64,000 nt of DNA from an uncultured virus (IMG/VR IMGVR_UViG_3300028591_000162) (Duplodnaviria > Heunggongvirae > Uroviricota > Caudoviricetes): IMG/VR virus record IMGVR_UViG_3300028591_000162; one strand, given 5' to 3'. A program made the position numbers and the translations under genes. A model generated the notes under the pieces. That model did not search any database, was not told the origin of the DNA, and saw nothing but the letters and a program-made list of their open reading frames with translations. The first letter of the stretch is position 1; every line of letters begins with the position of its first letter. Of the stretch, positions 7,109-47,049 are shown in pieces.

Positions 7109-7921
7109 ATGAAAAAAGCGAAGATTATAGCAGTAGCCAACCACAAGGGAGGCGTAGGCAAGACTACTACAGTAGCCTGTATAGGCAGCATCCTTTCTGA
7201 AAGAGGGAAGTCGGTGTTATTGATAGACCTTGACGGTCAGGCGAACTTGACGTATTCATTTATTGAGCAAAGTCCCACATCAACGATAGCGGATGTTCTT
7301 CTCGGTAGCAAGGATATGAAAGTCCCGGTTGTGAACATAGAGAAAAACCTTGATATTATTCCTTCGGATATAGAATTGGCTTATGCGGAAATGCAGCTGA
7401 TAAGCAAAATATCAAGGGAAAGAATACTGGCTAATATTCTCGAAAGGCAGTCCGACGGTATTTCTCTGGTTGAAAAGTATGACTATATTCTTATTGACTG
7501 TCCTCCTTCCCTCGGTATTCTCACTCTCAATGCCCTTACTGCGGCAGACGAGGTAATAATCCCGGTAGTGGCAGAGATACTGCCCATCAAGGGTTTGGAG
7601 AGGATAAAAGAGGCAATAGAAGAGGTAAGGGAATCCATAAATTCCTCTCTGGAAATAAAAGGAATATTACTGACCAGATGGGAACCGACCAAGCACGCAA
7701 AGGAAATAGAGTCCGGGCTACGTGAGGCGATGCCGTCAATGGTATTCCTCCAGAAAATCCGCAAGAACATCCGTATTGCCGAAGCTCCTGCTGAAAGCAA
7801 GAATGTCATCAAGACAGCCCCCAGTTCTCACGGGGCCATAGACTATCAGCTATTTGTAAATGAACTGACACCCGGACTGTTCAATAAGAGGGAAATAGAG
7901 AAACTAAGAAAAATGAGATAA
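7109..7921 (+). CDS. parA: ParA/Soj family partition ATPase
   Basis: Deviant Walker A KGGVGKTT, IDLDGQANLT, DYILIDCPPSLG. Confidence 0.95.
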   Translation: MKKAKIIAVANHKGGVGKTTTVACIGSILSERGKSVLLIDLDGQANLTYSFIEQSPTSTIADVLLGSKDMKVPVVNIEKNLDIIPSDIELAYAEMQLISKISRERILANILERQSDGISLVEKYDYILIDCPPSLGILTLNALTAADEVIIPVVAEILPIKGLERIKEAIEEVRESINSSLEIKGILLTRWEPTKHAKEIESGLREAMPSMVFLQKIRKNIRIAEAPAESKNVIKTAPSSHGAIDYQLFVNELTPGLFNKREIEKLRKMR

Positions 7922-7922
7922 T

Positions 7923-8261
7923 ATGAGCGAAAAGAAGAAAAATAATAAAATGTCTGCCCTGATAGGTTCTCTGACTCAAAAGGTTTCTCCTGAAGCCGAA
8001 GAGTCTGAGGCAAGGGTGATACAGACATCTAAAAATGAAGAAAGGCAAAAGAAGTCTATCCTCAGTGCCAGTATAAGAAAAGATCTTTTTGAGAAAGCGA
8101 AAGCCCTCTCCATCAAATACAGCATTTCGACTTCTGCTATCATAGAAGATGCGTTGACACTGTATCTGGATGAATTTGAACAGGAATATGGGGTTATTGA
8201 GGTTGGAAAAATAAAGAAAAATATTCTACCAAAAATCAAGGGAAAACCCTCTGAAAAATAG
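7923..8261 (+). CDS. Putative ribbon-helix-helix centromere-binding protein (type Ib ParB/ParG-like)
   Basis: Small gene coupled to parA; SILSASIRKDLFEKAKALS..STSAIIEDALTLYL fits a beta-alpha-alpha pattern. Confidence 0.65.
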   Translation: MSEKKKNNKMSALIGSLTQKVSPEAEESEARVIQTSKNEERQKKSILSASIRKDLFEKAKALSIKYSISTSAIIEDALTLYLDEFEQEYGVIEVGKIKKNILPKIKGKPSEK

Positions 8262-9621: not shown

Positions 9622-10116
9622 ATGAACACAGAAAGTATAAATAGCACTATTATATCAAAAAACCTGATGCTCGGTGATTACGTCAACATAAACGATGAAT
9701 TTTGCCCACTCGTTGCAAAAGTGTCAGGCGTGGGAGGATGGACTACTGTAAACAATGAGACAGTACCAGCCATAGAGTATGTTATTCCCTCTTCTTCAAT
9801 AAGCGTAGTATGTGCCATCACCAAGGTAAGTCCAATATCTGTAAATGCTGATATTCTTGAAAAGAACGGCTTCAAGAGAGTGCCACAATCAGGCTGTACC
9901 AACCCTTATCATTGGCTGCTTGAAAAATACGAGGAAGAAGGCGATGGGTTGCTATATCGCATCACGGCGTATAGAACACCGTTTCGTGGAATGTATGTCA
10001 TCATCAACAATCATGCAGATTGTGAGACCATTAATTTTAGAAAACAGATTGAACACTTCCACGAATTGCAACATGCCTTCCGACTGTGCAGCATTCCTGT
10101 GTTAATACGACCGTAA
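9622..10116 (+). CDS. Phage hypothetical protein
   Basis: LMLGDYV...ILEKNGF...HELQHAFRLC pattern recalled from Bacteroidales phage proteins. Confidence 0.65.
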   Translation: MNTESINSTIISKNLMLGDYVNINDEFCPLVAKVSGVGGWTTVNNETVPAIEYVIPSSSISVVCAITKVSPISVNADILEKNGFKRVPQSGCTNPYHWLLEKYEEEGDGLLYRITAYRTPFRGMYVIINNHADCETINFRKQIEHFHELQHAFRLCSIPVLIRP

Positions 10117-10257
10117 GACAACGACATCACGCTAAAAGATAATTCTAAGGATGCTCCTATTGGTAACAAAGGAGGCTGTCAGCAGTTATAAAGTCACGAC
10201 GGTATTGCACATCCATAGGATTCATCCGTTTAACCAACGGAAAAAAACTGAGAAAAC

Positions 10258-10351
10258 AGTCCTTCAGGACTATTGGGTAGGTTGTACTGCCTTAAGCTGA
10301 GGGCATGACCACTCGGCAAGTCACTACCAGCAGGTATGTTAAATCATACCC
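10258..10351 (+). ncRNA. 94-nt tracr-like scaffold RNA, copy 1
   Basis: Near-identical at 12130 and 13587; hairpins GTCC-TTCA-GGAC, TGCC..GGCA, GGTATG..CATACC; directly abuts the first repeat. Confidence 0.75.
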
Positions 10352-10453
10352 GGTGTTAATCTCCGTTAAATGCAAGTGATATACAACAGAGCCAAGCATC
10401 AAGTTCTGACTTGACGAGGTGTTTTTCACCGTAAAATGCAAGTGACATACAAC
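10352..10453 (+). CRISPR. Mini array 1: 2 repeats (36 nt), 1 spacer (30 nt)
   Basis: Repeats 10352-10387 and 10418-10453; consensus GGTGTTnnTCACCGTAAAATGCARGTGACATACAAC. Confidence 0.85.
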
Positions 10454-10498
10454 TCTATGGACAAACTCGTAAAAAAATTAAACTAATGAAAAGAAACT

Positions 10499-10615
10499 AT
10501 GACTGAAATGGAAATCGACATCCTGACAATACTTTCAATAGCAATGCTTGTCATTGTCCTGATAATTATTGCAAGAGAAATATACAATCAGATAAACAAG
10601 CACAACTACGATTAG
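10499..10615 (+). CDS. Small single-TM peptide (38 aa)
   Basis: MTEMEIDILTILSIAMLVIVLIIIAREIYNQ...; between array 1 and the Cas12f-like gene. Confidence 0.4.
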   Translation: MTEMEIDILTILSIAMLVIVLIIIAREIYNQINKHNYD

Positions 10616-10668
10616 ACTTCTTTCATTAGATTTTCGACCAGTATAACACAGAGACAAACAGCAAAACT

Positions 10669-11865
10669 ATGATTATTACAAGGAAAATAGAGATTTATGT
10701 CTGTGAACCAGACAAAAAACTCAAAAACGATTATATGCAGACGCTATGGAAATGGCGTGACCTCGTGCGCAAGGCTGCGAATATCATAGTGTCACATAAA
10801 TTCGTTCAGCAGTCCATCCGGGATTTTGTATATATCAAGGATGACATCAAGGAAAAATTCTATGTTTCCAACATCATAAGAGAAGGGAAAGGTATGAGTG
10901 AGCAGAATACCACCTACAGGCTTCTTTCTGACATGATGAAGGGTGTTGTTCCATCGGACATATATTCATCGCTGAATCAGAATATATGCAAGTCATTCAA
11001 GGAATCCCTGCCGGACGTACTGAGGGGTGAAGCCTCGATAAGGAACTATAAAAACAGTATTCCTATCCCCTTTTCTTCCAAGTCTTTTGCTTCGGCGTTC
11101 CGCAAAGGTCCCGACGGTAAGTTTTACTTCAATCTCTTCGGTATTCCTTTCTGTTGCTATCTGGGACGTGACAGGTCAAACAACGAGGCAATTCTGAACA
11201 GGTGTCTGGCAGAGACATACAAGATTTGCAGCTCTTCAATAGCATTTGAGAAGCGTACAAATCACGACACAGGAAAGAGGGTGCAGAGATTATTCCTTAA
11301 TCTCTGCGTGGATTTACCAAAGGAAGAAATACCTCTTAACAAGAAGAAGTATATATATGCCTATCTTGACGTTCACCACCCAATAAAATGCTCTTACATC
11401 GTGAACGCAAAGCAGGAAGAAGACAGTGGCATAAAGTGGTGCATGATAGGCAATGAAACTGAGTTTCTTTACAGACGCATACAGATACAAGAAGCTGTAA
11501 AGCGTTGTCAGGAAAACAATAAGTACGCTACTGGCGGTCACGGCAGGAGGAAGAAGACGAAAAGAATAAGGTTCTTCCATAAATTAGAAGAAAACTATGT
11601 GACCACAAGGATGCACACCTATTCAAAGATGTTGATAGATTATGCCATCAAGCATAACGCAGCAACGATAATCCTTATGAACCAAAAACCCAGAGAAGAA
11701 AAGGCAAAACTCGAAAATAACAAAGAGAATCCTTTCTTGTTGAGAAACTGGTCATACTTCGGGCTGAAGGAGAAAATTCACTATAAGGCACAGAAGTACG
11801 GAATAAAAATCATTGAAGATGTTCCACCCCAAAATAAAAGCGAAGATGAAAATGAATACGAATAA
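10669..11865 (+). CDS. Cas12f/TnpB-family protein with inactivated RuvC (dCas12f-like)
   Basis: MIITRKIEI N-terminus; SIRNYKNSIPIPF; FLYRRIQIQ; GGHGRRKK; HTYSKMLIDYA; LRNWSYFGLKEKIHYKA..YGI; RuvC-I and RuvC-II acids replaced; no Zn finger or RuvC-III; flanked by CRISPR arrays. Confidence 0.85.
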   Translation: MIITRKIEIYVCEPDKKLKNDYMQTLWKWRDLVRKAANIIVSHKFVQQSIRDFVYIKDDIKEKFYVSNIIREGKGMSEQNTTYRLLSDMMKGVVPSDIYSSLNQNICKSFKESLPDVLRGEASIRNYKNSIPIPFSSKSFASAFRKGPDGKFYFNLFGIPFCCYLGRDRSNNEAILNRCLAETYKICSSSIAFEKRTNHDTGKRVQRLFLNLCVDLPKEEIPLNKKKYIYAYLDVHHPIKCSYIVNAKQEEDSGIKWCMIGNETEFLYRRIQIQEAVKRCQENNKYATGGHGRRKKTKRIRFFHKLEENYVTTRMHTYSKMLIDYAIKHNAATIILMNQKPREEKAKLENNKENPFLLRNWSYFGLKEKIHYKAQKYGIKIIEDVPPQNKSEDENEYE

Positions 11866-12130
11866 AAGAAACAACATCAAAACAAGGATGCGGAAGCTCG
11901 CCATTAAAGGAAAACCTTTAATGGAACTGATTGACCCATTCATATTTTACTTCTGTCCCTCCGTAGCCATCGCAACAATAGCGGTGTTGCTGATGATAGA
12001 GATAGGCACCGATATTCTCCTATTCTTAGTGTTTTGCTTTACAGGATGGATTTTCTACCTGTCATTCCAGTTGTTCTTTGATGGCTTGCTACAGATATAC
12101 GAGATAATAAAGAAGAAAAATAAAAACTAA
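11852..12130 (+). CDS. Membrane protein (2 TM) overlapping the dCas12f stop
   Basis: Hydrophobic segments; its stop codon abuts scaffold copy 2. Confidence 0.55.
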   Translation: MNTNKRNNIKTRMRKLAIKGKPLMELIDPFIFYFCPSVAIATIAVLLMIEIGTDILLFLVFCFTGWIFYLSFQLFFDGLLQIYEIIKKKNKN

Positions 12131-12223
12131 GTCCTTCAGGACTATTGGGTAGGTTGTACTGCCTTATGCTGAGGGCATGACCACTCGGCAAGTCACTACC
12201 AGCAGGTATGTTAAATCATACCC
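12130..12223 (+). ncRNA. 94-nt tracr-like scaffold RNA, copy 2
   Basis: One substitution versus copy 1 (hairpin loop). Confidence 0.75.
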
Positions 12224-12389
12224 GGTGTCCCTCATCGTAAAATGCAGGTGACATACAACCATGGGGTTTCGAGAAGCCTCTGTATCAGGTGTTAATCACC
12301 GTAAAATGCAAGTGACATACAATTAATTTAGAGTAGTTATTAGGTACATAGGTGGTGTTCCTCACCGTAAAATGCAAGTGACATACAAC
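12224..12389 (+). CRISPR. Mini array 2: 3 repeats, 2 spacers (28, 30 nt)
   Basis: Repeats 12224-12259, 12288-12323, 12354-12389. Confidence 0.9.
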
Positions 12390-12419
12390 AATACCAACAG
12401 AGATTTAAAACAAAGAATT

Positions 12420-12680
12420 ATGAAACGCATACCATCAAGTACAACAAGTATTACAACATCTATCTTTTGGGAAGAAAACACCTATCCCAACCGTGATAAA
12501 GCCGTGGCTTTAGTTAAGAAGAATGACCTTCAGGAGAAGGAGAAACTAAAGAACGGTTGGCGGTGGATTCCTGTTCATAAGAACCACAAGATTCTCGTTC
12601 CTTGTGACAAACAAGGTAATCCCACACCAGAGGGAGAGAAAAAAATACAGAAGTTTCAAGAAATGTTTGACACGAAATGA
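12420..12680 (+). CDS. Hypothetical protein
   Basis: Start re-called at MKRIP because the upstream ATG lies inside a CRISPR repeat. Confidence 0.6.
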   Translation: MKRIPSSTTSITTSIFWEENTYPNRDKAVALVKKNDLQEKEKLKNGWRWIPVHKNHKILVPCDKQGNPTPEGEKKIQKFQEMFDTK

Positions 12681-13033
12681 AAAAAAGTATGAAAATACTC
12701 CACCTACCGCTTAAAGCGGAATGGTATCGCATGATAGAAAGCGGAGTCAAAACAGAAGAGTATCGCAGTGATAAGCCATACTGGAGAAAGCGACTCCTGC
12801 GATGCTATAAGAGTATTGATTGGTGTGATGACGGAGTTTCCTGCCGCTCCTGCTCAGTGTATCAAAAGAAACAATTCCGTAACTATACACACGTTTGTTT
12901 TAGATATGGTTATACATCCCGAACCATGACATTCGAGATAAAAGATATAACCATTGGAATAGGAAAATACGAATGGGGAGCCCCGACGGAAAGAAATGTA
13001 TTTATAATCAAACTTGGAAATAGAATTAAATAA
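12677..13033 (+). CDS. ASCH/PUA-like domain protein (Cys-rich insert)
   Basis: LPLKAEWYRMIESGVKTEEYR, GxKxxExR motif. Confidence 0.8.
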   Translation: MKKSMKILHLPLKAEWYRMIESGVKTEEYRSDKPYWRKRLLRCYKSIDWCDDGVSCRSCSVYQKKQFRNYTHVCFRYGYTSRTMTFEIKDITIGIGKYEWGAPTERNVFIIKLGNRIK

Positions 13034-13064
13034 ATCAAATATCAACAATTAAAACTGTAGAACG

Positions 13065-13568
13065 ATGGAAGAAAAGAAAGATTATGAAGAAATGCGTAAT
13101 GGTATATGTGAACGCATGAAGCTTTTGGCAGAAAAAAAGCTTGAAATAGTTCCAGACCTCGAATTGTGGATAGGAGAGTTTAATGATGAGTTTGCGAAGG
13201 CAAGTCAAAAGATGTTAAATAAAATGCCAAAAGCTTATACTGAGGTAGGAACTGTCGAAGCATATTTAGTGGGATTGGCTCAATTTACGTGCAGGGTGCT
13301 GACTCGATGGCAGAACAGGGGAATATTTTCTGATGAAGTGGACGGAATGAAATTTTACACCGAAGTTTTGCTGCCTATATGCAACGATGTAGCAAAGGCA
13401 GATTGGGAAGCAGAGGAAGAAGCTGAGAATATCAGTAAGGATTTGGAAGACGTGGATATTCCTATAGATGATATTCTACAGAAATATTTTGCGGACAAGA
13501 AACAAGATTGGGATGTTTTGCGCAAGGAATTTGAAGAATTGCGTGAAATAGTAAAAAAAGGCGATTAA
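13065..13568 (+). CDS. Hypothetical acidic protein
   Basis: 167-aa ORF with AT-rich leader. Confidence 0.65.
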   Translation: MEEKKDYEEMRNGICERMKLLAEKKLEIVPDLELWIGEFNDEFAKASQKMLNKMPKAYTEVGTVEAYLVGLAQFTCRVLTRWQNRGIFSDEVDGMKFYTEVLLPICNDVAKADWEAEEEAENISKDLEDVDIPIDDILQKYFADKKQDWDVLRKEFEELREIVKKGD

Positions 13569-13586
13569 GAATTAAATAAAAAACTA

Positions 13587-13680
13587 AGTCCTTCAGGACT
13601 ATCGGGCAGGTTGTACTGCCTTAAGCTGAGGGCATGACCACTCGGCAAGTCACTACCAGCAGGTATGTTAAATCATACCC
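13587..13680 (+). ncRNA. 94-nt tracr-like scaffold RNA, copy 3
   Basis: Two substitutions versus copy 1. Confidence 0.75.
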
Positions 13681-13846
13681 GGTGTTTTTCACTGTAAAAT
13701 GCAGGTGACATACAATTCTGGCACTTCTATTTCTTCATTTATCACAGGTGTTCCTCACCGTAAAATGCAGGTGACATACAACAATACAACTATATCGAGT
13801 ACTTCGCTGGGGGTTTTCTCACTGTAAGATGCAGTCGCCATCCTCG
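13681..13846 (+). CRISPR. Mini array 3: 2 repeats + 1 degenerate terminal repeat, 2 spacers (30, 28 nt)
   Basis: Repeats 13681-13716, 13747-13782; degenerate GGGTTTTCTCACTGTAAGATGCAG from 13811. Confidence 0.85.
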
Positions 13847-13947
13847 GAAACGACAATCAGACAGTCATCGAAAGGCTGCAACCTCGAATATTGAGCTGCC
13901 AAGATATACCGACAAAGAGATTTACGAATTTGATAAAATCTGAATAT

Positions 13948-14733
13948 ATGGCAAAGTTAGGAAAAAGAGAAATCGTTGTTGAAAATAAAATCGACCCTAC
14001 TATAAAATTTAGATTTGAGGTCGAAATCAACGTATCAAAAAAAGGAGAGTTCTACTTCACTCTGAATGATAAACAGAAAGAAACCTTGTTGAATAGCGGA
14101 GTAAATCTGAATAATACCATCAATCATAAGACCAAGCAAATCGGAACTTTCTACTCAGATACATTAGAAAAACTTTTATCTGAATTTGGGGAAATTCTAA
14201 AAGAGGCAGTATCAGCAGAGGTAATAGAAGATAAATTCGTCATCCTCTACTATATCAAAACAGAATGCACATATTGCTTGGCGAGTGGCGAGCCTGTTCC
14301 TAATGGCTACTATGTACCAATCGAGGAAAGAATAGATAGGCAATATGTTAATTGGGTAGAAGGAACTACTACTGGAGAGCATGGATTTGGGTTCTCCGCA
14401 TACGCTATGATATATAAAAAGCAAGTTCTTCGATTTAAGAGCGGTCAAGAAAAAACATTCTTCTATGCTATCAGAAATGAGCAGAAAAAAGAATTAGGGG
14501 ATTACGGTAAGAAATTATCAGATTTCATCATCCCTGCTCAGGATATTCGAGATGCTTACAATAATTGGTCTATGGGGGAAAAGAAAGAAATCGCATATAC
14601 AGAAGAAAATGCTAAATTCTTCTACGAAGTCCTGATAGCAGTTTGCAGGATGAACGAGAAGATAAAAGGCTTTATCAATGAGCCTGAAAAATTGCAGATG
14701 CTAATCAATTCACAAGTAAAACTACTAAAATAA
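13948..14733 (+). CDS. Hypothetical protein
   Basis: Long ORF; ATG start MAKLG. Confidence 0.65.
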   Translation: MAKLGKREIVVENKIDPTIKFRFEVEINVSKKGEFYFTLNDKQKETLLNSGVNLNNTINHKTKQIGTFYSDTLEKLLSEFGEILKEAVSAEVIEDKFVILYYIKTECTYCLASGEPVPNGYYVPIEERIDRQYVNWVEGTTTGEHGFGFSAYAMIYKKQVLRFKSGQEKTFFYAIRNEQKKELGDYGKKLSDFIIPAQDIRDAYNNWSMGEKKEIAYTEENAKFFYEVLIAVCRMNEKIKGFINEPEKLQMLINSQVKLLK

Positions 14734-15698: not shown

Positions 15699-16034
15699 AT
15701 GGATTTTGTAGATATTAAAGCAAAGGTATCTCGATTAGAAGAGATAATTGCGGAGGCAAAGGATATTATTGATTCCATTAATGAATACAAGGAATACTTT
15801 ATATATAATGGATGCTGCAACATTCTTGTTGACTGGATAAGATTAGACTCTCCAAGCCAGAATTTCCATTTTCATAATATCTGTGTGGAATTAGGTATTA
15901 AGAATATCGGGGACCTGATAAAGATTCCTTTTGAAGATTTTTGTGTCAAGGCAAGGAGAATTGGGAAGATGCGCCCAAGTGGAATTGCTGCACTTCGAGC
16001 AACATTAAAAGAAATGGGAATAGAATGGAAATAA
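15699..16034 (+). CDS. RNA polymerase alpha-CTD-like (HhH) protein
   Basis: NICVELGIKNIGDLIKIPFEDF...IGKM...LRATLKEMGI resembles alpha-CTD NCL..AGI..IGDL...L....GK.S..EI...L...G. Confidence 0.55.
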   Translation: MDFVDIKAKVSRLEEIIAEAKDIIDSINEYKEYFIYNGCCNILVDWIRLDSPSQNFHFHNICVELGIKNIGDLIKIPFEDFCVKARRIGKMRPSGIAALRATLKEMGIEWK

Positions 16035-28208: not shown

Positions 28209-29552
28209 TCATGAGAACTTATACTTTACCTTGCCACCGTCAAACACCTCACTGACAATCGTGGTCTCAAATGGGAAACCGTCTTCAATGTCGCTGATTT
28301 GGTCGAGGATATTCTTCATTTCCTCAGATGCTGTAAAGAACTTGCCCCAGTCGCCTGTCTGCTTGTCACGGAAACTTACCACATAGCGGTCTTCACCCTG
28401 CGACGTGTTGATGCCAGTCTCGTAGTCATGCACTTCAATAGTTTTGTTCACGATTGCGCCCAAGCGCATTGTCTTACCGGGAAAGCGTTTCTTTCCGTCG
28501 GCTGGGGTGTAACTAACACCCATTTCGCTAAACTTTTTCATTTTCTGATTTGTCAATTTATAAAACAAGTGTTTACAATCAGCATGGCAAGCCATGCCTT
28601 TGAATGAGCCAATAATCTCTTGCCGACGTTTCCGCGACTTCACCTTTGCCAGTTTCCTTGCTGCTTTCTGCTTGATACGCTTGCGCAATAATGAATGGGT
28701 ACCATAATGCACATAGCCAAGAAAGTCCAGTCCAACGTCCAGCGGTCGCACCGCCTCCGATGGCTTAACCTCCAAACCGAGACGTGCCACTGCTGCCACA
28801 TGAATGTTGCGCAACTCCCACAATTCTTTTTTCGTGCTGGCAAGCATCACGGTATCATCGCAATACCTGTAATACAAATAATGCGTCTCACCGTCCTTTT
28901 CATAGTGCTTAACGTATTTCAGCATTTCGTGGTCAACCTCATTCAGATAGAGGTTGGCGAAACACTGCGAGGAACGAAGACCCTTTGACAAGCCTTGTGG
29001 CATGAGCGTAATGAAGCTGTCAAGGATGGGTAACAGTATCGGGTCTGAAACATACTTCCTTATTATCTGCATCATCCGCACTTGGTCGATGCTGTCATAA
29101 TAATGGTGTATGTCGTTCTGATAGAAGTATTGTGATTGTTCGGGAGCATTGGTAAGGTCTTCCTCTACGACGTGGTGCAGCCAGTGCATACCGCGTCCCT
29201 TGATGCTTGCTGCCGTGTTCTTGATGAGCGTAGGGTATGTGTACTTCTCTATCACTACCATGATGGCATGGATGCCAACACGCTTCACTACCGTTGGGGC
29301 TTGCACATCGCGCTCTTTATAGCCCTCAGTTACATGCAGGTCGCGAACATCGCTACGCACAATACGAAAAGAACCTGCACTGATTTCTCTGCGTAGGCTC
29401 TCTATTATCGTCAGACGTTTAGGTCTGTACATTTCCCGTTGTCTTGGGTGTTCAAGGTGACTGATAACGTAGTCGAAACTTTCACCCATGTTCTCCTCGC
29501 TGACAATTTCGGGAATTAGATTGTCGAGAGGAAATCTAATGTCATAGTCCAT
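28209..29552 (-). CDS. DGR reverse transcriptase with ~110-aa C-terminal extension
   Basis: ASIKGRG, DIHHYYDSID, GLSKGLRSSQCFANLYL, YRYCDD, LDFLGY; adjacent to TR. Confidence 0.93.
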   Translation of the reverse strand: MDYDIRFPLDNLIPEIVSEENMGESFDYVISHLEHPRQREMYRPKRLTIIESLRREISAGSFRIVRSDVRDLHVTEGYKERDVQAPTVVKRVGIHAIMVVIEKYTYPTLIKNTAASIKGRGMHWLHHVVEEDLTNAPEQSQYFYQNDIHHYYDSIDQVRMMQIIRKYVSDPILLPILDSFITLMPQGLSKGLRSSQCFANLYLNEVDHEMLKYVKHYEKDGETHYLYYRYCDDTVMLASTKKELWELRNIHVAAVARLGLEVKPSEAVRPLDVGLDFLGYVHYGTHSLLRKRIKQKAARKLAKVKSRKRRQEIIGSFKGMACHADCKHLFYKLTNQKMKKFSEMGVSYTPADGKKRFPGKTMRLGAIVNKTIEVHDYETGINTSQGEDRYVVSFRDKQTGDWGKFFTASEEMKNILDQISDIEDGFPFETTIVSEVFDGGKVKYKFS

Positions 29553-29702
29553 GCCTTCAGGACACTTAGTTATGTTTCGGCTTTCTACATCATGTAGGGT
29601 TGCCGAGGCTCAAACCCTTCGCCCTTGCGGTCAGTGTACACGACACTGGTGTATAGGAACGATATTAAACAGTCTGCCTCCGAAAGACAGATGTATCTTG
29701 CT

Positions 29703-29998: not shown

Positions 29999-32900
29999 CT
30001 ACTCAACGAACTCGATTGCGCCTCTGAAGGCAAGCCGCGAGCCGTAGTCGGTGAGCGAGTTCGAAGCATCGTTATTCGCGTTGCAGTACACGAAGCCGTA
30101 GACCGAGTACGTGCCGACGCCGGAGCGAAGAACACAACGCCCACCCGATGCAGTGTACCATTGAGCATCACAATAGTATGTGTTCATGCTGGCATTTGTC
30201 ACGCACTTGCTTGGTATCACGTCACAGAAACGTCCGTGTTTCATTCGGGCAATTTCTTGGTTGTCGCCGCTGTTGGTGATACCCTGCACGGTGCGCTCGC
30301 TGCCGTCGGGCATCTTGATATGCCAAACTGCATCGACAGGACTGCCAGTAGGCGCAACGCTCCTGTTCTTGTAGAAAGCATCGTAACTCGGAATGTTCAG
30401 AGCCACGTTGTCCATCCACTCTGACACATTGCCCCACCAGTCTTCAAGTCCCATCGTGCGAGGTCTGCCGCTCGCGGTCTCTCTGAATGGTGATGGCTCG
30501 CTGGTGCTGTCGGTGCCACCTGTGTTCGTACCTGCGTTTACGCCTGTGCCGTTCACACCCTGCGAGTTTCTGCGTCCGTGGATAGCCATCCATAACTGTG
30601 CCATGTCCTTGTGCATTTCGTAGTCCACAACTTGGTAGCCGGCACCACGACACTTCGCAAGGTTTTGGAAGTCCTTGCAGGTGAAGTTCATGCTCGTTCC
30701 TGCCTGTGGCAGTCCTACCGTCAAGTCGCCGTTGGCATCGTATTTCCAGTAACTGGAGGTGGTCGATGTGCCTGTGCCTCGCTTCGGAGCAGCACCACTG
30801 ATGGAACGAAGACGCATGAGGTTGTCAACACTTGCCTTGTAACAGCCTATCAACGTAAAGTCATGCTCTACCCAGTCGGGTTCAATGGCTTCTATCGCGT
30901 CGCTGTCAACGGCAATACACTCCAAATCGTCGTAGCCGTTAGGGGTCGTGAAGACAAATGTAACTGCATTGGCTGGTACTGAAACAAATACGTACTCACC
31001 CTGCACAAAGTCACTCAGTGAATGTGTGATGTAGGTAATGACTGAACTCAGCACCTTGCCGTCCTTATCAAGGAACAGACCGCCTATCAGATTACTGTTG
31101 ATACCTGGCCAGCGCACCTGCTTCATGTTCTCCACATTCATGCTGTACACATTGTTTGCACTACTGTCCGTCAAATTGTCTGCATTGAACACGTCGCCGA
31201 CGTTGAAACCACTCACATACACACTCGACAAACCTTTCAGAAGCAAGTCGCCAAGTGCATGACGGTTGATGTTGCGAGCCGTTGAACGTGGCTCATTCAC
31301 CTCCGTCGAGAAAGCAGTGTACTTCTTGTTGTTCACATAGTCATTGATACCCTTGTACCAATAATGAGGAACACCCAAGAAAAGGTCGTAACCTGCTCCG
31401 TTCGTGTCGGTGATGTCGCAGTCAAGACCGTTGGCAAGTCTGCGCATGTTGTCATCGCTAACCTGCTCCAACTGCATCTTGCTCGTCCGCTCGTTGTAAG
31501 TACCTTTATAGACGTGCATCTGACTTTGCAACTTGGTAATGTGTCCGCTTGGCTCATAGCCGTCACCCTCACCATCAGTAGTATTGTTGTCGAGGTTTCG
31601 GATATTGCCGTCAAACTCCATTGCATCATCAAACTCTATCAACGTATATTGCGCATTGTATAGCGTGAGGTTCGGGAAGTATGCTACAAGATTGGCAAAG
31701 ATGGCATCCTCAACGAGGTTGCTCATAATCCAACTGCCGTTCATGCCGTCGCAAACATTTGTCTGCTCACTTCCTATTCCGCGAGTGCCAAGGCTCTGCA
31801 TGGCTTCAAGGGTTCTGCTGTTGCCTGTCATATCGTAACTGTCTATCTGCACTTCTGCAAGACGTGCGCCAGCATTGATAACATCGGCAAGCAACTGTTG
31901 CGCGTCTATGCTCGGGCAACCACTTAACTGTATGCGAGTGACGTTCGCCAATCCGTCAAATGATACACCGCCATTGGGATAGCCAAGACTGGGCAGGTTC
32001 ACGAATGACAGTTCCGTCATGCTTGATGGCAAAGTCAGCGTCTGCAAGGGTGACGATTGCGCAGGGCTGAAAGAGCGCAACAGACTACCGTGGGCTTTCA
32101 CTGTCTTCAGACGTGGGCAACCTGTGGCGTTCAATGTCAGTATCTTGGTGTTCCTAATGTCTATCTCCTCCAAGAATGGCATTTGACCAAGGCTCAACGC
32201 TGACAGAATATCGTCTGTGTACGATGGTGTATAACTCTCTCCACCGATGATGAGTTTCCGCAATAGCGTACAGTCGGCTATAACCCAGTTGCTGTTTTTC
32301 GGTGTACAGCCGCTTAAATCAAGTTCGCTCAGTTTATCAGCACCGAAGATATAGATAAGTTTACCACCGACACCTGCAGCAGCCTCAGTAAAGGTGTGGC
32401 TCTCACCTGCGCGCAGATAACATGAGTATTTCGCGCTGCTGGTGCTGTCAACGCCCATGCCAAAGTAGCCGTCCTGTGCTGCGGTAATCTTCACCGTGAT
32501 GGCTCCCATCACACGTGCTTGGAAGAAATGCTTGAACAGGTCGCCTGTCTGATAGTAGCCGTCGCGGTAGGCGAAACGCTTGCGCTGGAATGCTGGCAGA
32601 CTTTCAAGACGCAAACCGTGCAGTGCCGGATAGTGGTTGTCCGCTGCCGTCGCGGTCTCGATATACTTGCGCTGGCCGTCGAAGCTGCTCACTACCTTTG
32701 GCCACTTCAAGATGCGGTTTGTCATCCAGTAACGGTAGCTGCCTGCTGCACTGAATATCTCCAGTCCTGCGCCTGTCTTGGCAGAACGCATGGCGGCGGC
32801 GGTATCATGCAAGGTCAGCTGTGTGCCGTTATCATCAATCCAAACGCCCTCGCCTCTTTCAAACAGGGCAAACGACTGGCGGAACATCACACCGTCCCAA

Positions 32901-35900
32901 CCTTGGTACAGGTGGCTGTTCGCTCCGTCCATATCCCAAGGGATAGTCAGATAACAGTCGTTGTCGGCCTCGTCAACACTATCACCATCATACCAGTGGT
33001 TGAAGTAGTAGCGCATGTTGCCGTCAGTCTCTTTATAGACTGCTATCATCATGTTCTTGGCTCGCTGGTCAACGGTAGCCTTATAATCCGATGCCACAAT
33101 ATAGTGGTTCGTGCTGTAAGGGTTGAAGTAGTGGTGCATCTCATGCTGCCACTTCAACAGACGGTTGGCCTTGGTTCCTGCTACGGTATTGCCGTCAAGG
33201 GTGATGGTGAGCGATGCACCGTCGCCGTTGAAAATCTTTTCGCTGCCGTCGGGGTTCAGTGCGGCGTTCTCTTCGTGGTCGTCCGTGAGGTTCTGATTAC
33301 ACTGCTGACAGAACAACAGTTCACGGAACAACTGATAAGGTACCTTTCTACCCTGTGCGTACAGGTCGTTCAAATCATCATCGTCGGGGTAACGGCTCTC
33401 GTAGTATGTTGACCAGATAGGCACGTCGCCATCATCGGTGTGCAGCGTTTCAAGCATATCATCGACGCTGTTCACACCCTGCTGCCAACAGAACTCTTGA
33501 TACTGGCGATACTCGTAACACTCAACAGGGTTAAGCACTCTGCCTACAATCACCCACTTGCCAGTGCTGCTATCGTAGGTCATGCTGCCTGTGGTGTCGC
33601 GCCATACGCCACCAGTGTACTTGTAGTACTTGCCGTCGGTGCTGCGATAGACAGTTGACCAGTCGTAATCGCTGACATCATCTGCAGCAATCTCTGCGCC
33701 TGTTTTGTCAACATCAACGAACTCGGCTACGGCATCGGTCTCTGTCATGGCTCCTGTGCCGTCGTTCTCGATGAAGCGCGTCTCGGGGCCACAGAACTCA
33801 CTAATCATATAGAGCGTTCCGGGGATAAGCGATGCTGAACCAGCAAGCACCGTTGCCTTGTAAGTGTCAATGTTGGTGCCTCGCGGTGTAACAATCTCCT
33901 TGAAATCGCCATAGTTCACACAGCCCTTGTTGTAGCCAGGCACATCTTCGAAGCCGAAGAAATGGGGGTTGCCCTTGTCGGCATTGAAGTTAGCCTTGCT
34001 GTGGAAGTAGGCGTTTTCGGGAAGCGTAGCGGCCTCGGAACCTTTCTCCTGTCCGATGCGGTAGTCCGTGCGGAACAATGCACAGGTAACACCATCAATG
34101 GAGGTGTGCAGCTCCTCGCTGCTGTCAGTGTTGAATATCTGTGCAGGGGTCATGTAGTTTCTTCCCAAAGCCAACTGCACGTCGTTCATCTGCTCCATCA
34201 GTGCACAGTTATTCGCACCGGCACTGTCCGAATAGTCCACCTTGATAGTGATGGTGCTGATAGGGGTGCTGCCGTCCTTGATGCGTATCTTCTTCTTTGC
34301 AGCGAGTTTCACTGCCTCGTCGTACTTGGCAAGAATGGTTTCGTCGCCGTTATACATCTTGCTGACCTCTTCGCGCGTATGCAGCATGACAATGCGCTTG
34401 GCTTTCTTTGCCTTGCCTTTCTTGTTCTTGATTGCGTAGGCAAGTGTAGATGTACCTTGGTTCGTGACGGGGATAGCCTCAATCATACAGTCTGCCCAAG
34501 GACGGTCGGGGAAGTACAGATACCAGTCCATAAGCACCTGTGTCTTCTTGTCCTTGATATTCTCGATATAGTCGGGATAGTATATCTCGCTATCCGTCAC
34601 GGCTGCACCGTCCTTGCTCAGATTGGCATCAGAAGTGCGGGTCTCAACGCATACCATCACACCACGGTCAATCAACTTCTGCATATCGGGGCGAGGTTTC
34701 GTCACACCCTCTGCCGTAACGTCTGCCATCACTTGGTTCTGCTCATACTCGGTAAGCATAGCCTGCGTGTCGGTAAGGTTCACAATGTAGTTGTTGAATG
34801 CCTGTATGAAATCGTAGTAGGTATTCCACCTTACAATCTCATACAGATACAGGTCTGCATCCGTACCGTCGAAGTGGATGGTGTCGTTGAAAATCGGGAA
34901 TGCGCTGCTGGTGTCGATAGGCACACACGCTGCCATGTCACCGTTTTGGAACACTTTACACAACATCACACCACTGTAAGGAGCGCGTGCTTGCGGCTCT
35001 ATCACGATGTCAAATCGGTACACCACATCGTCAAGATATGAGGTCGCGGCTGTTGTATGTACGTTGGCGAGTGCCTCATCGCTATCACCGTTTGTAGTGA
35101 CGATGAACTTCTCACCAGTAAGCACGAAGCCGAGACGCTCACCAAGACACTTGATGATATGAGCGTTTCGCTTAGCGATGTTCTTCACCTTGAACGTCAT
35201 TGAAAGAGCAAGTCCATTGGTAGGGATAGAGGTGCTGGCAAAAGGCTGGTCGGTACACTCAGCCTTGACGTTCTCTGCAATACGAAGCGACATGCGACCA
35301 CCGCTCTGCTCTGTCCCGAATGTGTCAAGCACAAAGCCGTTTGTGGAATAGTTAGAGCCTGTAACGACAATCTCTTTCTCCGTTCCATCAGTGGCTTGTG
35401 TCTTAATAGTCTTGTCGGTGTCGGTATTGCTCCTGCCAGCAAGACTAATCTTGTACAGTGCGCCCTCTGTCTCTGCGATGTCTAGCAGTGAACCGTCAAT
35501 AAGCACCTCGCGCTTCTCTGACAAGGACACATTGCCACATGTTGCATCAAACACAAGGGTGTCGCCTTGTGAGTAGCCAACAATACGTTTCTCTATTGTG
35601 TAGTATCTGTTACGATACATCGAACTTTCGGAAAGGGTCTCAATCGCTCCTGTGGACTGATTGGCGACTGTAACCTCGACAACGGCAGGGTTTTTACTGC
35701 GCTGGTAACAGGCAAGGTCAATCTTCAGCGTCTCAAAGAGTTTCACTTCGCCGTCGCTATCGTCACTCCATCGTGCCACAACAATAGGCTTGTCGTAGTC
35801 GGCAACTTCCTCACGCTGCTCTATCACCATCACTGCTGTATGCAGCACGTTACCTCGCGTGCCGCTGGCTACGTCGGTACCCTGTATGCGGATGGGGTAT

Positions 35901-38425
35901 GCACCATGTCCTAACCCTGTCGGGTCGATGCTCACATTGTGGGGATAGGTGTCGTTGACAACAACGTCCTGCAGTGTTTCCCAGTCGCCGTTCTTGTATA
36001 TCTCCACAACGGTTCTGATACCTCTGTCACTGGCATTGTTCGGGAAGCGATACATCGGGATAGATGTTTTCTGTCCTCCCACCTGTAACGAGGTCTCACG
36101 TGTATAGTTGAGGGTCTGCACACTCTCGCACGTTACATCAACGGCAATAATGCTGATGTTCTTTGTGGCGGTGTTGCCTCCATCGTCAGTGATAACAGCT
36201 TGCAGGGGCAATTCTCCTGCGTTCTGACACAGGCTACTCAAATCGAACTCAAAGGAGTAGTCGGCAAGGGTGGCACTCGATGCCTTTCTCGGATTGAAGA
36301 AAGCAACAGTATTCTTCGTTGTGCGGTTCACGAAGTTTACACTCATGATACTGTTCGATGTCTCTTGGCTACCTGCCTTGGTAACAGACATGATGGCAGC
36401 TTTCACAATGAATGAGCCACCTGCCTTGCCGTAGAAAGGATTATCCTTGAACGCTACGGCAATGGTAGTACCTGTGCCACCACCGCTGCCGGTGCCGACA
36501 TTAAACTGTATCTCGTCGCCTACATCGTCGCCCTCGGCATTAACAAGTTTCAGCTTCACTACACCCTCGGTCTCGGTGTCAACGTCCAGTCCAGCAGGGA
36601 TATGGGTGTATGCACCACCAGTAGAGAGTGCATCTTTACCGTCTTTCTCCGGCTCGTCGCTGGTCTCTACCTCGCTTCCACCTCCGAAGTCTTTCCACAA
36701 ACCTATCTCACCGAAGCCTGTCACCTCGCCTTGGAACTGTTTTGTTTCCATCACATTCTCGGCGGTGCGGTAACTGATGATAAGTCCTTTCTTGGCATAG
36801 CTCACACCTGTCTCACGCTGATATTCTATCAGTCGCGTAACGGCTGTTGCCAGCGTGTAGAACTCACCTGCCACTGGTGCGCCTATCATATCGTCGATGA
36901 TGATGTAGGTCTCGCTGCCTGCGGCAAGACTTCCAAAGTCTTTCCAATTCTCGGAGTTATACCAGTTGACTTCGTTCACGGTCTTACCAATGAACTGATA
37001 GGTTTTCCATATTCCCGAACCTACCTCAAAGCTGATGATAAGTCCGCTTGTCGCTTTCTTAGCGTTCCATGCAGCATGAACGGCTGATATGCCTGTGTTC
37101 TCGGTGTCGCACAGTACATAGTAACCACTGATGGGAACTTGGTTGGTAACATTGAAGATGCCGCTGGAACTGGAGCCACCAATCTGCTTCAAGTCTGCAT
37201 CGTCGGCATCGTACATATAGATGTCGCTGCCAAGGATATATTGCTTCTCGGTGTATGGAGTAGTGGTATTTGGCTGCATCCACTTGTCTTGCGTATTCCA
37301 GGCATTGTAGTATTTACCACCGCGCTTCACGACGAACTGCCCAAGGCTTTCTGAAAAGTAAACTTCGGACGGAAGTACATTCATAATTCCTGTCTGCTGT
37401 ATGGTGATTGCGCCTGTCACGATGCCACCAATCTTAATAGCGTGATGAGCCATGTTGTCGGCTTGAAGTGCCTCGTCTGCCTCGCCTAATTCGGTAAGAC
37501 GCTCGTTAATCTCATTTTTTATTTTTTCAATTCTCTCGGCAAAAGAATAACCGTACAATTCCTGCACCCACTGCGGAATGTTATCTTCGGCATCGTAATA
37601 ATGTCCGACGAAATAGAATGGGTCGTTAGCAGCGTTTGTTGAATACAAGATACACTCCGTAACTCGTTCGCCAAACTCACTGCCAGCATAATCACCTCTG
37701 CTGATACAGAAAGCAAGCCAAGCAGTATCACCGTCTGACAAGGTGCAAAGACGGCACTCTACGGGATTGCCGTTATATACATACGCACCAGCCTTTGGCA
37801 ACTCGGAGTTTTCTTCCATGTAGTTGGAAAGTTCTACGATGTAGGCTTTCTTCTGCTCGTCTGTTGAGAGTGATTGTAAGGCAGCGGCGGCAGTTGACAT
37901 TTGCTGTGCAAGTGCCGTGATATTGGCCTCGTTCGTGTCTGCCTTGCTCTTGGCTGCATTAGCGGTATTCTGTACGTTGTTCAGTTGGTTGCCAAGTGTG
38001 GTAAGTTGCTGCGTATGGCTGTTGATATTGGTCTCGGCTGTCCGAACTCTTGCGGCAACTTCGTCGATGTCCTCTTGCAACTGGGCTACGCCCTCGGTGT
38101 ACTGGCTCATATCAACGGTAACCTCAATGGTGCCACCTGTGGCTACCCAGTCACCGCCTTTGCCAACATACGCAGTGAAAGGCGTTGAGGCACCAACACC
38201 TGCCATCCAACCGTCATGAGGGACGGGGTATGCCTCGCGCAACTCCTGTACGGTGAGGAATATGCCTTTATTAGCACCCTTGATGTTAGGTGCTTCAAGC
38301 CACCCATCTACTTTGAGATTGTGACCGATGGAAACACTTCCGGCTATATTTGCTTTGCCACCTATCGCGACATTACGACCTACGGAAACATCACCATCTA
38401 TCTGTGTTGTCTTGATTGAACTCAT
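29999..38425 (-). CDS. Large tail fibre/adhesin protein; DGR target with C-terminal C-type-lectin(FGE)-like domain and LRR region
   Basis: N-terminal coiled coil; LRR-like repeats ~31850-32350; GLEDWWGNVSEW and GSRLAF C-terminal motifs; contains VR. Confidence 0.85.
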   Translation of the reverse strand: MSSIKTTQIDGDVSVGRNVAIGGKANIAGSVSIGHNLKVDGWLEAPNIKGANKGIFLTVQELREAYPVPHDGWMAGVGASTPFTAYVGKGGDWVATGGTIEVTVDMSQYTEGVAQLQEDIDEVAARVRTAETNINSHTQQLTTLGNQLNNVQNTANAAKSKADTNEANITALAQQMSTAAAALQSLSTDEQKKAYIVELSNYMEENSELPKAGAYVYNGNPVECRLCTLSDGDTAWLAFCISRGDYAGSEFGERVTECILYSTNAANDPFYFVGHYYDAEDNIPQWVQELYGYSFAERIEKIKNEINERLTELGEADEALQADNMAHHAIKIGGIVTGAITIQQTGIMNVLPSEVYFSESLGQFVVKRGGKYYNAWNTQDKWMQPNTTTPYTEKQYILGSDIYMYDADDADLKQIGGSSSSGIFNVTNQVPISGYYVLCDTENTGISAVHAAWNAKKATSGLIISFEVGSGIWKTYQFIGKTVNEVNWYNSENWKDFGSLAAGSETYIIIDDMIGAPVAGEFYTLATAVTRLIEYQRETGVSYAKKGLIISYRTAENVMETKQFQGEVTGFGEIGLWKDFGGGSEVETSDEPEKDGKDALSTGGAYTHIPAGLDVDTETEGVVKLKLVNAEGDDVGDEIQFNVGTGSGGGTGTTIAVAFKDNPFYGKAGGSFIVKAAIMSVTKAGSQETSNSIMSVNFVNRTTKNTVAFFNPRKASSATLADYSFEFDLSSLCQNAGELPLQAVITDDGGNTATKNISIIAVDVTCESVQTLNYTRETSLQVGGQKTSIPMYRFPNNASDRGIRTVVEIYKNGDWETLQDVVVNDTYPHNVSIDPTGLGHGAYPIRIQGTDVASGTRGNVLHTAVMVIEQREEVADYDKPIVVARWSDDSDGEVKLFETLKIDLACYQRSKNPAVVEVTVANQSTGAIETLSESSMYRNRYYTIEKRIVGYSQGDTLVFDATCGNVSLSEKREVLIDGSLLDIAETEGALYKISLAGRSNTDTDKTIKTQATDGTEKEIVVTGSNYSTNGFVLDTFGTEQSGGRMSLRIAENVKAECTDQPFASTSIPTNGLALSMTFKVKNIAKRNAHIIKCLGERLGFVLTGEKFIVTTNGDSDEALANVHTTAATSYLDDVVYRFDIVIEPQARAPYSGVMLCKVFQNGDMAACVPIDTSSAFPIFNDTIHFDGTDADLYLYEIVRWNTYYDFIQAFNNYIVNLTDTQAMLTEYEQNQVMADVTAEGVTKPRPDMQKLIDRGVMVCVETRTSDANLSKDGAAVTDSEIYYPDYIENIKDKKTQVLMDWYLYFPDRPWADCMIEAIPVTNQGTSTLAYAIKNKKGKAKKAKRIVMLHTREEVSKMYNGDETILAKYDEAVKLAAKKKIRIKDGSTPISTITIKVDYSDSAGANNCALMEQMNDVQLALGRNYMTPAQIFNTDSSEELHTSIDGVTCALFRTDYRIGQEKGSEAATLPENAYFHSKANFNADKGNPHFFGFEDVPGYNKGCVNYGDFKEIVTPRGTNIDTYKATVLAGSASLIPGTLYMISEFCGPETRFIENDGTGAMTETDAVAEFVDVDKTGAEIAADDVSDYDWSTVYRSTDGKYYKYTGGVWRDTTGSMTYDSSTGKWVIVGRVLNPVECYEYRQYQEFCWQQGVNSVDDMLETLHTDDGDVPIWSTYYESRYPDDDDLNDLYAQGRKVPYQLFRELLFCQQCNQNLTDDHEENAALNPDGSEKIFNGDGASLTITLDGNTVAGTKANRLLKWQHEMHHYFNPYSTNHYIVASDYKATVDQRAKNMMIAVYKETDGNMRYYFNHWYDGDSVDEADNDCYLTIPWDMDGANSHLYQGWDGVMFRQSFALFERGEGVWIDDNGTQLTLHDTAAAMRSAKTGAGLEIFSAAGSYRYWMTNRILKWPKVVSSFDGQRKYIETATAADNHYPALHGLRLESLPAFQRKRFAYRDGYYQTGDLFKHFFQARVMGAITVKITAAQDGYFGMGVDSTSSAKYSCYLRAGESHTFTEAAAGVGGKLIYIFGADKLSELDLSGCTPKNSNWVIADCTLLRKLIIGGESYTPSYTDDILSALSLGQMPFLEEIDIRNTKILTLNATGCPRLKTVKAHGSLLRSFSPAQSSPLQTLTLPSSMTELSFVNLPSLGYPNGGVSFDGLANVTRIQLSGCPSIDAQQLLADVINAGARLAEVQIDSYDMTGNSRTLEAMQSLGTRGIGSEQTNVCDGMNGSWIMSNLVEDAIFANLVAYFPNLTLYNAQYTLIEFDDAMEFDGNIRNLDNNTTDGEGDGYEPSGHITKLQSQMHVYKGTYNERTSKMQLEQVSDDNMRRLANGLDCDITDTNGAGYDLFLGVPHYWYKGINDYVNNKKYTAFSTEVNEPRSTARNINRHALGDLLLKGLSSVYVSGFNVGDVFNADNLTDSSANNVYSMNVENMKQVRWPGINSNLIGGLFLDKDGKVLSSVITYITHSLSDFVQGEYVFVSVPANAVTFVFTTPNGYDDLECIAVDSDAIEAIEPDWVEHDFTLIGCYKASVDNLMRLRSISGAAPKRGTGTSTTSSYWKYDANGDLTVGLPQAGTSMNFTCKDFQNLAKCRGAGYQVVDYEMHKDMAQLWMAIHGRRNSQGVNGTGVNAGTNTGGTDSTSEPSPFRETASGRPRTMGLEDWWGNVSEWMDNVALNIPSYDAFYKNRSVAPTGSPVDAVWHIKMPDGSERTVQGITNSGDNQEIARMKHGRFCDVIPSKCVTNASMNTYYCDAQWYTASGGRCVLRSGVGTYSVYGFVYCNANNDASNSLTDYGSRLAFRGAIEFVE
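30029..30144 (-). repeat. DGR variable repeat (VR) at the 3' end of the 2808-aa gene
   Basis: 14 mismatches to TR, all at TR adenines. Confidence 0.95.
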
Positions 38426-47007: not shown

Positions 47008-47049
47008 CAAAGTTAAACCCTGCCGACACTTTTTCTCCGTTATCTATTG
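47008..47049 (-). promoter_or_regulatory. Putative late promoter CAATAGATAAC-N23-TAACTTTG (portal-terminase)
   Basis: Conserved motif and spacing. Confidence 0.7.

Follow-up and report, generated by a model that had tools for sequence, protein, structure and literature searches.

Probable guide RNA scaffolds fused to the CRISPR mini-arrays of a phage with a predicted nuclease-dead Cas12f

Some CRISPR systems silence DNA without cutting it. Those of type IV-A, Cas12m and Cas12c are often plasmid-borne, carry spacers against competing elements and borrow adaptation in trans. They rely on other protein families and other guide RNAs than the locus considered here, and we know of none in which a cis-fused trans-activating CRISPR RNA (tracrRNA) scaffold precedes each array. 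That locus lies in a stretch of 64,000 nucleotides (the window) from an uncultured tailed phage of the rumen (IMG/VR record IMGVR_UViG_3300028591_000162), where a 94-nt element occurs three times, each time directly ahead of a short CRISPR array, and where the gene between the first two arrays specifies a protein resembling nuclease-dead Cas12f (dCas12f). For dCas12f, RNA immunoprecipitation sequencing has recovered single guides of 85–105 nt with a 14–16-nt guide and no tracrRNA (Hoffmann et al., Nature 2026, PMC13472631). The same report sets apart a distinct dCas12f cluster next to CRISPR arrays, in loci without rpoE, and proposes a repressor role for it; the legend of its Extended Data Fig. 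1a refers to putative guide RNAs, found by covariance, upstream of CRISPR loci, so that a scaffold-before-array design is already in print, without experiments. That cluster is treated by bioinformatics only, its chromosomal example being a Chitinophagaceae metagenome-assembled genome (MAG) in which the guide targets an efflux promoter, and the word "phage" appears once, in the introduction.

The phage locus shares with these array-associated systems a truncated, nuclease-dead Cas12f next to CRISPR arrays. With dCas12f-sigmaE (PMC13472631; PMC12259091; PDB 9n9c) it shares a homologous protein (E 4e-67), the C-terminal truncation, and what appears to be a naturally single RNA, encoded on the gene's strand, whose 5′ part is the scaffold and whose 3′ part is the guide. 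It differs from dCas12f-sigmaE in that no sigma factor adjoins the gene, here or in the related phage loci; in its full 36-nt repeats and changing array spacers of 28–30 nt, where those systems have fixed RNAs of 85–105 nt and guides of 14–16 nt; and in the expected outcome, which would be blocking rather than activation. Type V-F Cas12f1 (PMC11246509) also has a split anti-repeat and 36-nt repeats, with a repeat/anti-repeat stem of 5–7 bp that forms a pseudoknot beside the guide and a second stem further upstream; here, unlike in Cas12f1, each array has a tracr part of its own that is cis-fused to its first repeat, the second stem is only 6–7 bp long, and the protein is predicted not to cut. 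TnpB omega-RNAs and TldR proteins offer a further likeness, a single structured RNA with a 3′ guide and nuclease-dead RNA-guided DNA binders (PMC13472631, PMC13622181), although their guide is single and fixed, without a repeat-spacer array or any turnover of spacers. We place the system within the dCas12f guide RNA kind and not in a new class. Its variant features are carriage by a phage, several autonomous scaffold-led cassettes, the lack of a sigma factor, and adaptive turnover beside the scaffold. Phage carriage, several scaffold-led cassettes per genome, polar turnover and the details of the pseudoknot go beyond what the text and legend of PMC13472631 describe, and a literature search for phage-borne dCas12f, part of it too loosely phrased to inform, found no paper describing it. 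What this analysis adds is a system that resides in a phage, with at least four cassettes in the lineage, and in which neither a sigma factor nor Cas1 was found.

Comparison of the sequences places the scaffold copies at 10258–10351, 12130–12223 and 13587–13680, all on the + strand, and all scaffold and array elements sit on that strand in the intergenic gaps of a + strand gene block. Copy 2 departs from copy 1 at a single position (position 38, A>T, in the flank of hairpin P2 described below), and copy 3 at two (T>C at positions 17 and 21), of which the second, at 13607, turns a G-U pair of hairpin P1 into G-C. The 36-nt first repeats begin without a gap after the scaffolds, at 10352, 12224 and 13681; a sequence-only reading of this DNA had described three copies that differ by one or two nucleotides and end at the first repeat base, and that is what we find. 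Mini-array 1 (10352–10453, +) has repeats at 10352–10387 and 10418–10453 around the spacer 10388–10417. Mini-array 2 (12224–12389, +) has repeats at 12224–12259, 12288–12323 and 12354–12389, with spacers at 12260–12287 and 12324–12353. Mini-array 3 (13681–13846, +) has repeats at 13681–13716 and 13747–13782 and spacers at 13717–13746 and 13783–13810, and adds a degenerate third repeat (13811–13846). The arrays thus hold two, three and two intact repeats, with spacers of 28–30 nt and a period of 64–66, and the regular 36-nt repeats with unique spacers identify them as CRISPR arrays. Since the scaffolds are identical to copy 1 at 92–93 of 94 positions, whereas the seven intact repeats stand 0–5 of 36 positions off their consensus, the scaffolds are the better conserved part, again as first read.

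The ends of these cassettes have features of their own. An A-rich 20 nt precedes every scaffold copy. The first 14 nt of each scaffold (10258–10271, 12130–12143 and 13587–13600, all +) form, after an A-run, the hairpin AGTCC-TTCA-GGACT, which is absent from the scaffolds of relatives. In copies 2 and 3 a terminator scan of the minus strand also scores this hairpin as an intrinsic terminator; a scaffold copy on the metagenome contig L080 has a change in the hairpin loop. Arrays 1 and 2 each end in an intact repeat, followed at once by the 5′ part of the next gene (10454–10483 and 12390–12419); after array 1 this gene is a small open reading frame (ORF). The final "guide" of each of these two arrays would be self-matching unless the end of the repeat (…ACAAC) does not serve as a target-adjacent motif (TAM).

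The ORF between arrays 1 and 2 (10669–11865, +) specifies 398 amino acids and has no Pfam match. Residues 4–382 of its product align with residues 9–363 of the 365 in PDB 9n9c_A, "Nuclease-deactivated Cas12f" (E 4.1e-67); active Cas12f nucleases match it more weakly (E 7e-46), and the alignment to one of them, 9nzo_B (506 aa), stops at residue 419, the active enzyme continuing for about 87 residues. A large protein collection holds 773 relatives at E ≤ 0.001, most of them 52–61% identical. The shortened C terminus is predicted to lack part of the RuvC site. An end that falls short of 9nzo_B matches the C-terminal truncation described for dCas12f (Hoffmann et al., Nature 2026, PMC13472631). On the strength of its full-length homology to a characterised dCas12f, we assign the product as a predicted nuclease-dead Cas12f, whose ribonucleoprotein would be expected to bind matching DNA without cutting it.

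A search with an alignment of homologues led to 32 viral and 20 genomic dCas12f loci (a search with the single protein reached no viral locus), and in many of these loci nhmmer searches that started from the window's three units picked up similar ones, all on the strand of the protein. We aligned 31 distinct full-length scaffold-plus-repeat units, from 18 loci and the window, and examined four helices. Two are hairpins within the scaffold, P1 (columns 6–10/17–21; 10276–10280/10287–10291 in copy 1) and P2 (columns 26–33/42–50; 10296–10303/10309–10317). The other two join scaffold and repeat. In the first (AR1), the 6-nt loop of P1, GTTGTA (10281–10286), is complementary to the last 6 nt of the repeat, TACAAC (10382–10387); in the second (AR2), columns 53–58, GTCACT (10320–10325), are complementary to the part of the repeat that immediately precedes the AR1 partner, AGTGAT/AGTGAC (10375–10380). 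Of 765 cells in these units, 97.0% pair, and 15 of the 25 pairs have changed on both sides. The structure scores 0.537 for covariation, whereas 500 shuffles averaged 0.189 and none of them attained the observed score. Sliding the partner by 1–3 columns lowers pairing to 32–45%, a comparison that favours our structure since it was read off the same sequences, while the compensatory counts are independent of that choice. Compensatory changes occur in all six pairs of AR2, which is only 6–7 bp long, with no longer repeat/anti-repeat duplex observed. AR1 is paired in 97.8% of cases, its pair 12:133 being C-G in 25 units and U-A in six, and the window carries the U-A form (GTTGTA with TACAAC). At 6 bp and next to the guide, AR1 is the short pseudoknot stem of 5–7 bp that typifies Cas12f. 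A minimum-free-energy fold of 10258–10417 independently recovers P1, P2, AR2 and a linker hairpin (10333–10338/10345–10350 in copy 1), with a z score of −2.16. The pairing of GTTGTA and GTCAC(T) with the 3′ end of the repeat, proposed at the outset, therefore stands, with covariation in both helices; the correction is that GTTGTA is the loop of a covarying hairpin, so that its pairing makes a pseudoknot. Of the scaffold hairpins, P1 and P2 are backed by covariation, while the 5′ hairpin (10258–10271 in copy 1) is specific to this phage lineage and lies outside the conserved family.

A covariance model built from the nested part of this structure and run at E ≤ 0.01 over 654 kb gave 101 matches spread over 48 of the 52 loci (all except L029, L043, L044 and L052); 99 of the matches share the strand of dCas12f. 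Those outside the seed include units of 15 sibling contigs and several second units, and weaker matches occur in the Sphingobacterium loci L036–L041. On both strands of the 64-kb window there are exactly three strong matches, for 10271–10387 (94.9 bits), 12143–12259 (92.8 bits) and 13600–13716 (98.6 bits), and one weak match inside array 2; with E values from 1e-19 to 5e-21, the three scaffold copies are far beyond chance. The match of copy 1 starts at 10271, which divides the 94-nt unit originally proposed: the sequence from 10271 onward belongs to the conserved family, and the first 13 nt, the AGTCC-TTCA-GGACT hairpin, are particular to this lineage. The exact scaffold sequence has no match in IMG/VR, and the region as DNA is unmatched in the phage collection. 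Scaffold units stand directly upstream and downstream of the dCas12f gene, and their layouts among relatives range from a solo scaffold with one repeat (L004:4958–5084) to scaffold-led arrays of up to seven repeats. Some relatives have compact guides, where a shortened repeat is joined immediately by the closing scaffold (L042:5832–5902, L046:3357–3438 and L028:4232–4323). The first of these loci (L042:982–7068, in a Muribaculaceae MAG) has dCas12f right after a susC/susD pair, with its 71-nt compact guide scaffold between susD and dcas12f, and none of the four neighbours scanned there is a sigma ORF. We see in the scaffold a conserved RNA family that goes with dCas12f.

That association bears on the idea that the guides are decoys, which would load a host Cas12f nuclease to redirect or block it and so act as an RNA anti-CRISPR. 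Two 2026 preprints report phage sgRNA-like RNAs that subvert Cas9, and active Cas12f relatives of the window protein do exist at the E value given above; against this, the phage has its own matching protein between its arrays, the scaffold units co-occur with the gene in nearly all loci, and real, changing spacers would be unnecessary for a decoy. We consider this explanation very improbable.

We think instead, with a probability of roughly 70%, that the 94-nt elements supply a phage dCas12f with the tracrRNA-like scaffold of its guide RNA. The scaffold would be read on the + strand together with its downstream mini-array, and its core would fold into P1 and P2; the P1 loop GTTGTA and the downstream GTCACT would pair with the last 13 nt of the repeat, (A/G)GTGA(C/T)-A-TACAA(C/T), and the pairing of the loop would create a pseudoknot beside the guide. 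Because no gap separates the scaffold from the first repeat, these two and the first spacer would together make a natural single guide RNA. Later repeat-spacer units would reach the scaffold only by long-range or trans pairing. The protein would bind this RNA, with processing where needed, and the ribonucleoprotein would bind matching DNA without cutting. The reading of the element as a cis-fused tracrRNA, first put forward from the letters alone, is well supported by the covariation of AR1 and AR2, by the strand agreement of the matches and by homology to the published dCas12f single guides.

Repeats further down an array could use the scaffold as well. First repeats make on average 11.45 of 12 possible pairs with their scaffold (n = 31) and downstream repeats 11.3 of 12 (n = 63), with 62 of the 63 keeping at least 10; the mean is 11.2 across arrays of the same locus and 9.9 across loci. 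These numbers fit the earlier suggestion that downstream spacers would need the scaffold in trans or an alternative pairing, and indicate that later spacers could be served through long-range or trans pairing. They can also be taken to mean that the element is an ordinary tracrRNA, cut from the first repeat or separately started, that serves all units in trans and owes its fusion to a compact layout. Canonical Cas12f1 does use a separate tracrRNA (PMC11246509), the scaffolds pair about equally well with downstream and other-array repeats, and one scaffold may head as many as seven repeats. We regard this as unlikely, however. Every array examined has its own scaffold fused to its first repeat, which a purely trans-acting RNA would make needless; the two adjoin in all three window copies and in all 31 aligned units; the compact relatives close the scaffold directly onto a shortened repeat; and in the dCas12f data published, RNA immunoprecipitation sequencing found single guides and no tracrRNA (PMC13472631).

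The position next to the scaffold is also where spacers change. Fifteen sibling viral contigs have an identical 127-nt scaffold plus repeat, yet they hold 12 different spacers, in the patterns B, A-B, C-B, D-B, A-D-B, G-B, H-B, I-G, E-F, J, K and L-L-K. Spacer B is distal in nine of the 15 contigs, and in L009 versus L010 only the scaffold-proximal spacer differs. Relatives gain spacers beside the scaffold, and so the newest spacer holds the cis-guide position. In the lineage of the window, spacer content varies between samples: in the DNA sequencing run X2 a different spacer replaces 12324–12353, and the runs contain loose ends in which other spacers follow the repeats, or the same scaffold stands behind other upstream sequence. 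A fourth scaffold-led mini-array, with two repeats and one spacer, occurs on L080 (reverse strand, about 1340–1570), where it precedes a Toprim-type gene; its scaffold has three differences from copy 3, and the sequences that flank it recur as loose ends in runs X1 and X3. It probably lies in a part of this phage outside the window, and the lineage has at least four scaffold-led cassettes.

The appearance of new spacers beside the scaffold is what would be expected if the element were mainly a DNA-level leader or promoter, for transcription and spacer integration, its RNA structure being incidental. CRISPR leaders are conserved and A/T-rich upstream, much like the A-rich 20 nt before each copy. 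The compensatory changes in four helices, scaffold-repeat pairs included, nevertheless speak of selection on RNA pairing, and a scan for sigma-70-type promoters, which does not cover Bacteroidota promoters, found nine against 11.0 expected. A role of this kind in place of a guide RNA scaffold seems to us far-fetched; the DNA-level role and the RNA role are not mutually exclusive.

What such guides would be directed against is suggested by two protospacers in relatives. The protospacer of L003:3000–3029 lies in an exonuclease-like ORF of L005, a sibling phage, with 27 of 30 positions in agreement, and the newest, scaffold-proximal spacer of L018 (7516–7545) matches its own contig at all 30 (L018:12874–12903), in a 45-codon ORF that follows a SocA/Panacea-like ORF within a module missing from the siblings L023, L024, L026, L027 and L031. 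Since both protospacers lie on the coding strand, it is the template strand with which the guide would pair; the 5′ flanks of the two, …GTTTTG and …CCCTGC, are too few for a TAM motif. Apparent self-matches of 13–14 nt in L009 and L010 were rejected as a shared gene-start motif at chance level. The two cases (n = 2) suggest that the targets may be found inside the phage's own lineage, in competitors or in the phage itself, and the L018 self-match could equally mean self-regulation or a chimeric assembly that mixes strains.

The likeliest use of the guides would be a cleavage-free silencing or blocking of the DNA of related phages or other mobile elements, with some of the phage's own accessory genes perhaps included. 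Binding-only interference with related phages is a role that we propose tentatively, putting its chances a little below even. The self-match of L018, in a small ORF of a variable module, can be read in another way, as the mark of a fixed regulator of the phage's own genes (timing, lysogeny or an accessory module) after the manner of dCas12f-sigmaE or TldR, and not of a weapon. Both dCas12f-sigmaE and the TnpB-derived repressors control genes of their owner (PMC13472631, PMC13622181), and the window has a partition module on the + strand, a ParA ATPase (7109–7921) followed by a small Arc-like/ribbon-helix-helix protein (7923–8261), which suggests that the phage can persist in a resident, plasmid-like prophage state. 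A fixed guide, however, would not be expected to differ between near-identical sibling phages; no sigma factor is nearby; and no self-match of at least 15 nt occurs in the window or in three relatives that are 85–93% complete (G002, G004 and G005), nor were self-targets found in the 64-kb window with seeds of 12–30 nt and 0–6 mismatches. We judge this explanation rather improbable.

Several observations weigh against the guide RNA interpretation, or against parts of it. The contigs assembled from the RNA runs break at the repeated scaffolds and show neither co-transcription nor RNA ends nor strand. The repeats of any one array are all alike, and covariation therefore cannot separate cis from trans pairing. 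The change in run X2 affects the middle spacer of array 2 and not the first, so turnover is not strictly polar in the lineage of the window. Five related phage records, of which two are at least 90% complete, had no match to Cas1 (PF01867), while a control was positive in seven of 14 genomes, and no Cas1 was found among the window ORFs scanned; adaptation, if it still goes on, would have to draw on host enzymes or on some other route. The searches found no target for the five spacers of the window or for the sequences that follow the intact final repeats of arrays 1 and 2. The nearest phage record (G001, 49.6 kb, corresponding to window positions 19000–64000 and a further 4.6 kb) had none; cultured phages, searched at E up to 10, gave chance-level spacer matches only (best E 0.3); exact 22-mers of all five spacers had no match in IMG/VR; and array 2, the only one searched against 401 genomes from the family to which the Prevotella MAG G007 belongs, matched them solely in the stretch resembling a ribosome-binding site after the last repeat (best E 2.5e-4 per genome). 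The proposed role, finally, depends on the two protospacers in relatives, one of which is a self-match.

The rest of the window is that of a phage. Its structural and lysis genes include a P22-like portal, an SU10-type capsid protein and an amidase, and it also encodes YopX, SSB, a DnaG primase, DUF5131 and a C5 methylase. The neighbours of dCas12f are phage early genes (ERF, RecT, SSB, RusA and an antirepressor). On the minus strand a diversity-generating retroelement (28209–29664), with an RVT_1 ORF at 28209–29552 and an RT-3 RNA (Rfam RF03068, 54.3 bits) at 29546–29664, adjoins tail-like genes (DUF4376), and the structural half has two giant minus-strand ORFs without an informative Pfam match, at 29999–38425 (2808 aa) and at 47040–64000 (at least 5649 aa, leaving the window). 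Pfam scans found no Sigma70 domain in 43 window ORFs or in 63 ORFs around 11 related phage-like loci, while a positive control, the Sphingobacterium locus L036:5158–5970, gave Sigma70_r4_2; the operonic rpoE beside dcas12f that defines dCas12f-sigmaE was accordingly not found among the ORFs scanned in the window and the phage-like loci. The closest genomic relative (55% identity) has an ORF with HTH_17 and RNA_pol_A_CTD domains (L035:10635–11570) 3.4 kb downstream of its dCas12f gene. No counterpart is demonstrable in the window, and an alpha-CTD-like candidate (ORF 15699–16034) was dropped, having no Pfam match at E ≤ 1 and a BLASTP E of 0.16 to the L035 ORF. The region of the window is present in sequencing runs from the gut of sheep, goat and cattle; four runs (RNA, X3 and X17; DNA, X1 and X2) were compared with positions 10100–14000, all as assembled contigs that break at the scaffolds, and stretches that they do not cover carry no information.

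In its widest form, which we hold to be somewhat less probable still than binding-only interference by itself, the picture is one in which Bacteroidales phages, this one probably a plasmid-like prophage, run an adaptive, cleavage-free CRISPR. The scaffold would be the leader of each autonomous cassette, and a new spacer, once placed after the first repeat, would at once be part of a dCas12f single guide, older spacers depending on weaker trans pairing; the system would silence or block closely related competitors, and sometimes the phage's own accessory modules, with adaptation enzymes borrowed from the host. If the guide RNA interpretation is correct, a single guide RNA and a CRISPR array would form one continuous design, which bears on the path proposed in the discussion of PMC13472631, from omega-RNA through tracrRNA plus CRISPR RNA to single guides. 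A DNA binder of 398 amino acids, with a scaffold-plus-repeat guide of about 130 nt and mini-arrays that can be multiplexed, would also be a compact candidate for programmable repression. In the biology of the family, phages would join the owners of nuclease-dead Cas12f, and the changing spacers, with no sigma factor beside them, would point to binding-only interference between phages.

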